The notes beneath the pieces are model-generated. The model ran no database searches. It saw only the letters and a program-made list of their open reading frames with translations, and had not been told where the DNA came from. Both the position numbers and the translations under genes were made by a program. Positions 42,146-44,368 of a stretch of 64,000 bases of DNA are shown here, in pieces. Location: positions 119,272-183,271 of the forward strand of contig CALHAI010000005.1 in the NCBI GenBank assembly GCA_937934295.1. Direction: 5' to 3'. Source of the DNA: an uncultured Blastocatellia bacterium. GTDB lineage: Bacteria > Acidobacteriota > Blastocatellia > HR10. The stretch's first letter is position 1, and the number at the start of each line of letters is the position of its first letter.

Positions 42146-44368
42146 ATGGCTTCGGCGAGCGAAGAGATGGTACAATCAAGCGCAATGCGGACACGGCATA
42201 GAGCCCGGCAAGATCTACGCGCGCGTCTTCGCACTGAATTGAAGAGTCGGCGGCGAGCCTCCTGGGGGGTCGGAATCGCGCTCCTTCTCTTTCTCGGCGT
42301 CGCCGAAGCGGGACCGGCGCTTGGCCATGCGGATTCCCCGGCGTTCGCGCGTTCGCCTCAGTCCTTCCCGGTTCTGGATGTGGTGCACTACAAGGTCGAA
42401 GCGGAGGTGGATCCTACCGAGTTCTCGCTGACGGCCCGTGCGACCGTCACGCTGCGTGTGGGTGCGGCCACGCGCTCGGTCGTTCTGGAGCTGAACGGTT
42501 CGCTCATCGTCTCTCGCGTGCAGGAGGTCGAGACCGGTGCCGCCCTCACGTTCCTTCAGGACCGGTTCGATCAACTCAACGTGCGCGTGGACTTGGGGAA
42601 GATGGTCGAGGCGGGCACGCAGCTGACGCTCCTTTTCGAGTACGCGGGCGCGCTTCGCGGGCCCGAAGGAGGACCGATCCCTGATCGGCGCTTGGCGTAC
42701 ATCGGCCCAGAAGGCGGCTATCTCTTCTACGCGGCGCGCTGGCTTCCCTTCTACAATTATGCCGCCGACTGTGCGAGCTACGAAATCACGTTGCGGGTGC
42801 CGCAGGGGATGGTGCTCGCCGGCTACAGCGAACAGCCGCTTCTGGCTCAACCGGTTGTGGAGCGGCCGACGCCCGCGCCGGCGCGAGGATCGCGCCGCCT
42901 GACAGGGCCGGCGGAACCGCCTCCCCCGCGAACGCCTCGGGTCGCCTACACGCTCGTCTCGACGCGACCGGTGCTCGTCGGCTCGCTCGCCTTCTCGAAG
43001 TACATCACCAAAGAAGTGCGCACATCCGCTGGCTTCACCATCGAATTGTTCATGAAACCTGGCGATGAAGAGCGCATGGAAGGATTGGCCGATCCCATCG
43101 GGCGTATGCTCGAGATCTATCACGCCCGATTCGGCCCGTATGCCTTCGGCGACCGCCTGCGAGTGATCGAGATCGATGACGATTCCTTGGAGTATTACGT
43201 CGGCCCGGGGACGCTCTTCCTCGCGCCGCGCGTGCTGGCTGGCGATCGCGCCTTCGACGTGGGGCGATTGGCCCGCGAGGTCGCCTTTCAATGGTGGGGG
43301 CAGGCCGTCGCCTTGGGGAACTTCGACGATGCATGGATCTCGCAGGGGCTCGCGCAATACAGCGCCCTTTTGTTCCGCGAATTTGCGGGATCGCGCGCCG
43401 AATATGAACAGGCCGTTCGCGAGGTGCTCGAGCGCGCATTGGCGTTCGAGTCGGCGACCTCGATCGCGCGCGCGCCGCGCGAATTGTACGATCTCTCGCC
43501 GAGTTACCAGGCCATCGTCTACGACAAGGGCGCCTTCGTCTTCCGCATGCTCCGTGCTGTGCTCGGCGATGAGAAGTTCTTCGCCCTGCTGAAGACCTTT
43601 TACCAGACCTATGCGGGCAAGAACGCGCATATTGCCGACTTCGAAGAACTGGCTAGCCGAGTCGCCGGACGCAGCTTGCGGAGCTTCTTTGGCCTTTGGG
43701 TGGATTCGACGGGCGTGCCGGAATTCCGCGTCGAATACATGATCCTGCGCACGCGCGACGGACGCTTCAAAGCGCGCGGGACCGTCAAGCAGACGCTTGA
43801 GCTGTTCGACATGCCCGTGGATTTGCTCCTGCGCGCCGAAGGGGATCGCACCGAGCGGATCACGATCCCCATGAAGGGGACGGAGGCGAGTTTCGAAATC
43901 CCCTCCGAGACGCTCCCCCGCGAGATCGTGGTGGATCCGGACTTTCGGATCCTCCACCTCACGGAGACGATTCGCATCGCTGTCGTTGTTCGACGCGGGA
44001 TCGAGCATCTCAAGAACCGCGAGTATCCGGAAGCGGAGCAACAATTCCGAGCGGCCTTGGAGCTGGACGCGCTCAGCTCATGGGCGCACTACAACCTGGG
44101 GCTGTTGTACTTCGAGCAGCGGAATTTCCAACGGGCGCTGGATGTGTTCACCGATGCCCTCAATGGGGATAAACGTCCGCCCTGGATCGTCGTCTGGAGC
44201 CACATCTATCGCGGGAATTGCTATGATGCGCTCGGCGAACGCGAGCGCGCCGTCGCCGAATATCAAAAGGCTTTGGAGACCAAGGACGACTATAACGGCG
44301 CACAAGACCTCGCCCGCCACTACCTGAATCACCCGTACGCACCGACCCGCACGCGCGCTAGCCGGTGA
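42146..44368 (+). CDS. secreted M1 (aminopeptidase N / LTA4 hydrolase) family homolog with C-terminal TPR repeats; zinc-binding HExxH...E replaced (RExxF...Q) - probable pseudo-peptidase
   Basis: Signal peptide present. The region [31 protein letters not shown] aligns with the M1 motif [32 protein letters not shown], with H->R, H->F and E->Q at the three zinc ligands. C-terminal TPR-like repeats ([30 protein letters not shown]...). Confidence 0.8.
   Translation: [740 protein letters not shown]

Follow-up and report, generated by a model that had tools for sequence, protein, structure and literature searches.

M1 aminopeptidases are the closest described systems to the protein analyzed here. 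The four-domain enzymes used for comparison (PepN/APN, puromycin-sensitive aminopeptidase, ERAP1/2, IRAP and tricorn-interacting factor F3) end in a large ARM/HEAT-like ERAP1_C domain, and in M1 aminopeptidases the GxMEN motif binds the substrate N-terminus. The two-domain M1 enzyme of D. radiodurans (PDB 6a8z and 6iff) and leukotriene A4 hydrolase, which is cytosolic, hold zinc via HExxH...E and are devoid of tetratricopeptide repeats (TPR). Eukaryotic M1 pseudopeptidases or binding platforms are known as well, among which TAF2 in TFIID, yeast Tma108 and Drosophila Gone early. TAF2 is without zinc ligands. Tma108 keeps nearly all active-site residues, unlike the protein described below. In a 2024 review of metallopeptidase pseudoenzymes, Tma108 is the only eukaryotic M1 case in the main text, and Gone early is cited. 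No bacterial M1 pseudopeptidase was found in the literature searched. Outside M1, zinc ligands have been lost in the degenerate LytM factors EnvC and NlpD, periplasmic metallopeptidase homologues which act as regulators; these are M23 proteins, and the parallel is a functional analogy only, with no homology to the M1 part of our protein. A metallopeptidase domain followed by a C-terminal TPR is found in periplasmic E. coli BepA, which is chaperone-like for LptD (PMC8423444, PMC7950410). BepA is an active protease of family M48, and its likeness to the present protein is functional and architectural only, the M1 part being unrelated.

The gene studied lies in a window of 64 kb, the whole stretch of DNA analyzed, and has the following features.

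42146..44368, + strand: M1-TPR gene, predicted to be zinc-less, whole (ORF list; 740 aa; alternative starts at 42167 and 42185)
42146..42328, + strand: N-terminal export region, an Arg-rich n-region plus the hydrophobic stretch W40-A53 (nt 42263-42304), putative Sec-type signal peptide or signal anchor (read from the sequence, homologues, AF2)
42374..43021, + strand: M1 N-terminal beta-sandwich domain, residues 77-292 (weak Pfam Peptidase_M1_N match, profile alignment to puromycin-sensitive aminopeptidase, conservation scan, AF2 secondary structure)
43022..43720, + strand: thermolysin-like 'catalytic' domain, predicted to be without metal site, residues 293-525
43265..43360, + strand: former zinc site, residues 374-405 ([32 protein letters not shown]), with R377 for His, E378 kept, F381 for His and Q400 for Glu (alignments)
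43520..43528, + strand: Y459-D460-K461, counterpart of the Y-x-K-G catalytic Tyr motif (alignments)
43721..43960, + strand: small beta-sandwich domain, residues 526-605, counterpart of domain III in four-domain M1 enzymes (AF2 strands at 528-596; Foldseek alignments of ~700 columns to IRAP, ERAP and PSA)
43961..44335, + strand: three TPR repeats plus a capping helix, residues 606-730

The choice among the three candidate start codons (42146, 42167 or 42185) is ambiguous; public gene calls use 42167, which gives 733 aa, and an identical 733-aa protein is present in public assemblies. The gene is under purifying selection, with a dN/dS of 0.12-0.16 against the orthologues in two related loci, L005 and L006. 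No second copy was found by searching the 64-kb window, and tRNA and Rfam scans of the same window gave no match. Scanning of positions 39900-44700 revealed no promoter-like site, and a single terminator-like site inside the gene, below the shuffle expectation.

The protein is homologous to M1 aminopeptidases across all domains. It matches Pfam Peptidase_M1 (PF01433) with 64.9 bits (cut-off 27.7; E 1e-17), and a 13-sequence family profile run against the PDB retrieved puromycin-sensitive aminopeptidase (E 1.6e-23). The M1 architecture, an N-terminal beta-sandwich plus a thermolysin-like domain, is present, and the AF2 fold is of high confidence. Identity to the four-domain enzymes compared is only 12-17%. 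In the N-terminal domain, residues 182-212 ([13 protein letters not shown]) form the second most conserved stretch, and correspond to the ARRAFPCxDEP motif of M1 enzymes. Three tandem 34-residue TPR repeats were recognized by Pfam TPR_1 (54.3 bits; cut-off 27.8), in agreement with the original prediction of a C-terminal TPR region. The short TPR domain differs from the ERAP1_C domain of four-domain enzymes but, in the predicted model, takes the position of their helical domain IV, as judged from domain order and whole-chain superpositions. It is the best-conserved domain of the family in a conservation scan of 119 homologues, and is structurally closest to TPR domains binding peptides or partners (YbgF/CpoB, Hop/STI1), periplasmic YbgF/CpoB being the top match.

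Export had been predicted along with the repeats, and is supported by the homologues, most of which have a signal clear by eye: a classical Sec-type signal, with an A-x-A end a few residues ahead of the first domain, was read by eye in about 110 of 120. In the lineage of our protein the n-region is long and rich in Arg, and is followed by a hydrophobic stretch with no obvious A-x-A site (again by eye); residues 10-50 are modeled by AF2 as a single low-confidence helix. The protein is probably exported to the periplasm or the cell surface, via a cleaved signal or a membrane anchor. A signal peptide would be a further difference from the four-domain enzymes.

The original prediction described an M1/LTA4H homologue with its three zinc ligands replaced, and the alignments to M1 enzymes agree. 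In pairwise phmmer alignments to solved enzymes (M. tuberculosis PepN 8t41, ERAP2, D. radiodurans M1 6a8z), R377-E378-x-x-F381 falls on H-E-x-x-H, and Q400 on the Glu which is the third zinc ligand. The same placement is reproduced by the family profile run against the PDB. The possibility that the genuine HExxH lies elsewhere was dismissed by a motif search, which found no HExxH, HxxEH or CxxC over the full 740 residues. Only two His residues lie in the catalytic-like domain, and neither is conserved; it has no conserved Cys. An alternative metal site was rejected on these grounds. The GxMEN exopeptidase motif is absent as well: where it would align, the family has [ED]-[TS]-L-[ED]-x and our protein D-S-L-E-Y, and in the family profile alignment GAMEN is an insertion without counterpart. 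Our protein keeps the Tyr of the Y-x-K-G motif (Y459-D-K-G), and the family mostly has Phe (Phe in 80, Tyr in 30 and other residues in 9 of the 119 homologues); 14 of the 119 are without Tyr at both 459 and 460. Compared to four-domain M1 enzymes, the protein has Arg, Phe/Tyr and Gln for His, His and Glu, no GxMEN, and a catalytic Tyr which is not conserved in the family. That it works as a zinc peptidase is very improbable, because the ligands and GxMEN have been lost, and neither the catalytic Tyr nor the general-base Glu, replaced in 8 homologues, is strictly kept. As far as these residues tell, it would be unable to bind a catalytic zinc, and no peptide would be hydrolyzed by the M1 mechanism; the same losses make a strong case for the earlier claim that it is catalytically dead as a zinc peptidase.

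The substitutions are shared by the orthologues. The set of homologues consists of 119 full-length sequences from Blastocatellia/Acidobacteriota, 40-100% identical; Arg is found in 118, Glu in 111, Tyr or Phe in 114, and Gln in 114 of them. E378 is thus kept in 93%, and is replaced in the remainder by Ser, Ala, Gly, Asp or Gln, and position 381 varies among Tyr, Phe and Leu. Residues 376-406 are the most conserved 31-residue segment (mean identity 0.90, vs 0.68 overall). Relatives reside in 580 or more species-level genomes. The labels Blastocatellia, Pyrinomonadaceae and Acidobacteriota cover nearly all of the 80 best; five bins bear others. Blastocatellia carrying the zinc-ligand loss come from soil and hot spring habitats. 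Throughout the class Blastocatellia, Arg, Phe/Tyr and Gln have become fixed in place of the three ligands, and purifying selection acts on this replacement. It is a family trait and not decay. Catalytic residues have been lost while purifying selection persists, which is the mark of a pseudopeptidase, and the family is a bacterial addition to the known M1 pseudopeptidases. TAF2, Tma108 and Gone early differ from it in location and partners, lack TPR, and are no orthologues of the bacterial proteins.

Four relatives in Acidobacteriota (P0128, P0133, P0149 and P0161), all uncharacterised metagenomic proteins, have the same M1 plus C-terminal TPR build but, unlike our protein, retain HExxH...E. 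P0128 and P0133 are of the same length class (~660-680 aa), share 33-34% identity with it, and are placed inside the compact M1-TPR clade (bootstrap 191/200); P0149 and P0161 are longer. The TPR fusion had been interpreted as an adaptation of the dead enzyme. This part of the prediction did not hold, because zinc-competent relatives carry the TPR too. In sister sub-families the residues aligned by hmmalign at the four site positions are wholly different (RRYD, NTHN, NERN, KEYE and others). The compact clade includes few zinc-competent members and many with other degenerate sites, and the zinc site has been lost at least twice in the wider clade. Given this mixture, the ancestral job of the clade probably already leaned more on binding than on cleavage. 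Clusters of the sister sub-families are named only 'Acidobacteria/Acidobacteriota bacterium', 'aminopeptidase N', 'hypothetical' or 'tetratricopeptide repeat protein'.

The gene neighborhood is variable. An ABC-2 type exporter is encoded directly upstream (ATPase 40533-41336, permease 41333-42130), and the permease stop codon is separated from the M1-TPR start by 16-37 nt on the same strand, with no terminator-like site between. Within the window, the gene is part of one co-directional string with an lptC/lptA fusion, lptB and rpoN. In a tblastn survey of 84 related loci, the ABC ATPase and permease, RecJ and LptC/A adjoin only the two closest orthologues, those of L005 (89% identity) and L006 (84%). 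ABC genes are not found beside the orthologue in the other 82 loci, including members at 57-60% identity, and unrelated genes surround the three members whose context was inspected, at 57%, 49% and 40% identity. Linkage to an ABC transporter was consequently rejected as a family property. When ORFs up to 5 kb away were clustered for 83 loci, no universal neighbor emerged, but only patterns specific to sub-clades. In 22 loci the gene has a co-directional neighbor encoding a secreted protein of 230 aa, which weakly matches DUF6438. In Pyrinomonadaceae, the gene is accompanied by a divergent M16 pair and a convergent, opposite-strand lpxI-lpxA-fabZ-skp-bamA cluster, the latter adjoining it in 21 loci.

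We favor, with moderate confidence, an exported pseudo-peptidase with a binding or receptor role, in which the zinc-less groove is kept as a binding cavity. A putative periplasmic binding, adaptor or chaperone-like role is plausible, and by analogy is the best that can be proposed. The vacated metal pocket is probably occupied by the invariant Arg377, which would keep the two active-site helices joined; the invariant E435, D449 and E429 are candidate partners for its guanidinium. The former substrate groove would be closed by the TPR as domain IV closes ERAP, IRAP and PepN. Both notions are drawn from domain order and whole-chain superpositions. More speculatively, the groove might take up a peptide in extended form, or a stretch of protein that is unfolded or exposed, and the TPR domain might dock the protein to a partner, the whole possibly working as a non-catalytic receptor, adaptor or holdase of the cell envelope. 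The extreme conservation of the pocket, with Glu378 in nearly all members, also fits new chemistry or small-molecule binding, a counterpoint to protein binding; a counterpoint to a binding role is the difference of neighborhoods between sub-clades, with no conserved gene partner.

Narrower and unlikely is a version of the same role in which the protein is an envelope quality-control factor resembling BepA: it would dock on the BAM/Lpt outer-membrane biogenesis machinery, and handle assembly intermediates purely as a chaperone. The overall logic, a peptidase fold plus a C-terminal TPR, is that of E. coli BepA (PMC8423444, PMC7950410), the YbgF/CpoB TPR is periplasmic, and lpt genes in the window and the lpx/bam cluster in Pyrinomonadaceae lie nearby. 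However, BepA is an M48 and not an M1 protein, homology is missing outside the TPR, and Pfam and NCBIfam detect no M48 match; the lpx/bam cluster is convergent, the lpt link is confined to the three closest genomes, unrelated genes lie beside other sub-clades, and the adjacencies could be due to chance. Somewhat harder to accept is that the protein is still an enzyme, and that Arg377, Glu378, Tyr/Phe381 and Gln400 catalyze, without metal or with a different metallation, a reaction whose substrate is a modified peptide or no peptide at all. No segment of the protein is more conserved than the former active site, Arg being invariant and Glu378 present in 111 of 119 members, and such conservation exceeds what a mere structural plug might need. 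Yet 8 members have another residue for Glu378, position 381 can be Tyr, Phe or Leu, the Y-x-K-G Tyr is mostly Phe, the domain has no conserved His or Cys, and the differing residue sets of sister sub-families argue against one conserved new catalytic apparatus. The short same-strand gap without terminator-like site, kept in L005 and L006, could make the protein a periplasmic accessory subunit of the upstream ABC-2 type exporter, but this is very improbable: the ABC genes are missing at 82 other loci, the link is synteny of very close relatives, and at family level the hypothesis is already largely refuted. The reading of the gene as a decaying pseudogene, or as an error of sequencing or annotation, has a negligible probability. 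The loss of catalytic residues is its sole pointer, and it is already refuted by the intact 740-codon frame, the occurrence of the same substitutions in 119 independent homologues from many samples, the dN/dS values and the high-confidence predicted fold.

The preferred reading, an exported pseudo-peptidase with a binding role, can be extended. Tentatively, and with considerable doubt, the compact M1-TPR clade of Acidobacteriota could be a large undescribed family of secreted receptors or adaptors, ancestrally devoted to binding, whose zinc site would hence have been discarded repeatedly; in Blastocatellia the pocket might have been rebuilt round the invariant Arg to hold one particular ligand, such as a protein C-terminus or the anionic group of an envelope precursor. 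If so, the protein would take part in envelope biogenesis or nutrient sensing, as a component peculiar to the class.

The finding has no bearing on any long-standing open question. A bacterial case conserved class-wide, in a clade in which the metal site has been lost repeatedly, may provide a clean system to study how a peptidase scaffold is re-used. Acidobacteriota are abundant soil bacteria, and the proteins described here bear the public names "M1 family aminopeptidase" or "aminopeptidase N". Should they prove to be zinc-less binders, secreted aminopeptidases would be overcounted in the peptidase inventories and metabolic reconstructions of Blastocatellia and other Acidobacteriota.

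The gene lies on the forward strand and encodes 740 aa, to which the residue numbers below refer. The ORF on the opposite strand is treated as spurious, being of a kind typical of high-GC (64%) sequence.

42146-44368, +, M1-like ORF, ATG start, 740 aa
42215-44044, -, antisense ORF opposite the M1-like gene, 609 aa

A Peptidase_M1 domain was identified by Pfam at residues 376-518 (64.9 bits, E 1e-17, gathering score 27.7), along with three TPR repeats at approximately residues 612-720 (TPR_1, 54.3 bits). The Peptidase_M1_N match is below threshold, and the PepN and LTA4H equivalogs of NCBIfam give weak partial matches, scoring far under their cut-offs. 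When the TPR-free part was compared by phmmer with all PDB sequences, a 31-residue stretch paired with 31 residues of M. tuberculosis PepN, and the site paired equivalently with ERAP2, LTA4H and a Deinococcus M1 enzyme; a 13-sequence family profile gave the same placement against puromycin-sensitive aminopeptidase (E 1.6e-23). According to these alignments to solved enzymes, R377-E378-x-x-F381 replaces H-E-x-x-H and Q400 replaces the distal Glu, exactly the loss of all three zinc ligands claimed in the original prediction. A genuine motif elsewhere in the protein would have meant that the site had been misplaced, and the whole protein was checked: neither HExxH nor HxxEH occurs anywhere in the 740 residues, and only two His, neither conserved, reside in the catalytic-like domain.

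The AlphaFold2 model, built from a 53-sequence alignment, is confident (mean pLDDT 87.2, pTM 0.82), and includes both the beta-sandwich and the thermolysin-like domain, in keeping with the intact scaffold proposed earlier.

N-terminus, helix, low confidence
residues 77-292, beta-sandwich
residues 293-525, alpha/beta thermolysin-like domain
residues 526-605, second small beta-sandwich
residues 607-728, seven helices

On inspection, nearly every homologue carries a classical Sec-type signal (basic n-region, hydrophobic core, A-x-A site), ending 5-10 residues ahead of the first domain. In the thermophilic sub-lineage of the query the leader is longer and Arg-rich, and residues 40-53 form a hydrophobic stretch, which may be either a cleaved signal or an anchor; no lipobox was seen.

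Searching 5.8 billion clustered proteins at E <= 1e-5 returned 972 matches. M1 and TPR are combined in each of the top 120 (40-100% identity); those with a named source belong to Blastocatellia or Acidobacteriota and bear the annotation 'M1 family aminopeptidase', 'aminopeptidase N' or 'TPR protein'. The same substituted motif stands in 120/120, and the substitutions are thus shared by the orthologues. Residue counts in the 119 full-length members are as follows.

position 377, first His ligand in M1 enzymes: Arg 118/119
position 378, general-base Glu: Glu 111/119; Ser, Asp, Ala, Gln or Gly in 8
position 381, second His ligand: Tyr 91, Phe 23
position 400, distal Glu ligand: Gln 114, His 5
position 459, catalytic Tyr: Phe 80, Tyr 30

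Tyr is absent at both 459 and 460 in 14/119 members, and [ED]-[TS]-L-[ED]-x stands at the GxMEN segment. The former zinc site (residues 376-406) is the most conserved 31-residue window of the protein (mean identity 0.90 vs 0.68 overall), followed by the N-domain segment 182-212 (0.88) and by TPR segments; TPR is the best-conserved domain (0.75). The query itself differs from its family at two N-domain positions that are otherwise strongly conserved, within a segment lining the substrate groove in M1 enzymes.

42752-42772, residues 203-209: Tyr203 (His in 115/119 members) and Cys209 (Arg in 99/119)

Scanning one genome per species, a relative was found in at least 580 species-level genomes (580 of the 600 matched stretches listed). 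Labels of the best 80 loci are mostly Blastocatellia, Pyrinomonadaceae or Acidobacteriota, exceptions being one bin labelled only 'bacterium' and five MAGs (L015, L030, L037, L064, L076) labelled Clostridia, Heliobacteriaceae, Heliomicrobium or Gammaproteobacteria; these five host Blastocatellia-type orthologues at 45-50% identity, and are probably mislabelled or chimeric. The window matches a metagenomic contig of 590 kb, and its nearest relatives among the matches listed are hot-spring MAGs, JZ-3 (89%) and bacterium HR10 (84%). Given family-wide conservation, and dN/dS of 0.12-0.16 against the two closest orthologues (Nei-Gojobori), the notion of a relic was rejected, and the gene is to be regarded as conserved and functional.

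When 1.84 billion representatives were scanned exhaustively with HMMER, 17,891 matched at E <= 1e-3 (119 at E <= 1e-30). The site (positions 377, 378, 381 and 400) is covered by about 130 of the top 150 matches: 56 have the zinc-competent set H-E-H-E, the remainder varied degenerate sets, R-E-Y-Q marking the clade of the query, others being R-R-Y-D, N-T-H-N, N-E-R-N, R-S-Y-D, K-E-Y-E and more. Ten members, eight degenerate and two zinc-competent (P0128, P0133), were checked by Pfam: nine are M1 proteins of 660-820 aa with C-terminal TPR, the tenth (P0135, 600 aa) has the M1 domain only. In more distant H-E-H-E relatives M1 is joined to C-terminal TPR or to N-terminal BamD-like repeats. P0174, P0190, P0218, P0226 and P0252 retain HExxH, and carry TPR_6 or BamD(YfiO)-like repeats N-terminal to M1, hence more than one M1-TPR arrangement exists among relatives; P0252 has an extra C-terminal AhpC/TSA peroxiredoxin domain. 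In neighbor-joining trees, a rough method for sequences 28-35% identical, a compact M1-TPR clade was recovered in 191/200 bootstrap replicates, degenerate members were monophyletic in 0/200, and zinc-competent P0128 joined the 'N-type' degenerate branch in 184/200. If full H-E-H-E was never regained, these rough trees suggest that the site has been lost at least twice.

The neighbourhood of the gene includes the following ORFs.

40066-40494, -, ORF between glmS and the ABC ATPase gene, 142 aa
40533-41336, +, ABC ATPase (DrrA/RbbA-like), upstream of the M1-like gene
41333-42130, +, ABC-2 permease, 4-nt overlap with the ABC ATPase gene
46206-48464, +, LptC-LptA fusion ORF, 752 aa

The permease and M1-like genes are 16-37 nt apart, and the latter is followed by genes for RecJ, the LptC-LptA fusion, LptB, RpoN, HPF, HprK, RapZ and PTS proteins. 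This arrangement occurs only in the two closest genomes; it is absent from all other loci examined, and ABC-transporter linkage was rejected as a family property. The 142-aa ORF has no Pfam match, is kept in the same two genomes (87% and 70% identity), and is probably a real lineage-specific gene. In the fusion, LptC (residues 23-177) is separated by about 440 residues from LptA/LptD_N-type domains, found in two stretches (best 621-714); in E. coli LptC and LptA are small and separate, and one fused, much enlarged candidate bridge protein would be unusual. Clustering of neighbouring ORFs in related loci revealed patterns confined to single sub-clades, and no conserved functional partner. In 22 loci of the 43-47% identity sub-clade (L030-L045, L050, L056, L060, L064, L074, L076, L080, L082) the orthologue is followed, about 80-130 nt downstream and in the same direction, by the gene for a secreted protein of 230 aa, a possible operon partner within that sub-clade; its one match, to DUF6438, is weak and sub-threshold, and the gene is absent from the window. 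In Pyrinomonadaceae (L046 and about 20 more loci) the orthologue is flanked on one side by a pair of divergent genes for M16 (pitrilysin-like) peptidases and on the other by lpxI-lpxA-fabZ-skp-bamA, a cluster convergent with it; a 1,100-aa TPM/TPR protein is encoded further upstream. The M1-like gene behaves as a stand-alone unit, and the neighbourhood therefore provides no functional partner.

M1 enzymes use a zinc-activated water, Glu as general base, and Tyr to stabilise the transition state; their substrate groove is lined by the zinc pocket and by the N-domain segment next to it. Since His, His and Glu are missing, M1 catalysis, as read from sequence, very probably cannot operate in this family, where accessory elements (GxMEN, position 459) are degenerate too. 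New enzymatic chemistry in the remodelled pocket is disfavoured, because Glu378, position 381 and Tyr459 vary inside the clade and sister clades have entirely different residue sets. The groove-lining pocket and N-domain segment are, with TPR, the most conserved parts of the protein. On the best reading the old groove would persist as a binding site, TPR acting as lid and/or docking module, and the exported protein would work without catalysis, as a receptor, adaptor or holdase. The invariant Arg is probably a structural substitute for the metal. Precedents are Tma108, described as holding nascent chains in the substrate pocket (PMC11266112), and Gone early, a further M1 pseudopeptidase (PMC4242634). 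A role in the envelope like that of BepA is appealing but less likely, its only grounds being analogy and non-conserved adjacency.

M1 non-peptidase homologues are already known in eukaryotes; no description of a bacterial one, or of this M1-TPR clade, was found in the searchable literature. The finding touches no major open question. What emerges would be a solid, well-conserved pseudoenzyme family, which corrects the existing database annotation of these proteins as aminopeptidases, within an M1-TPR clade displaying a pattern of repeated loss of the zinc site.
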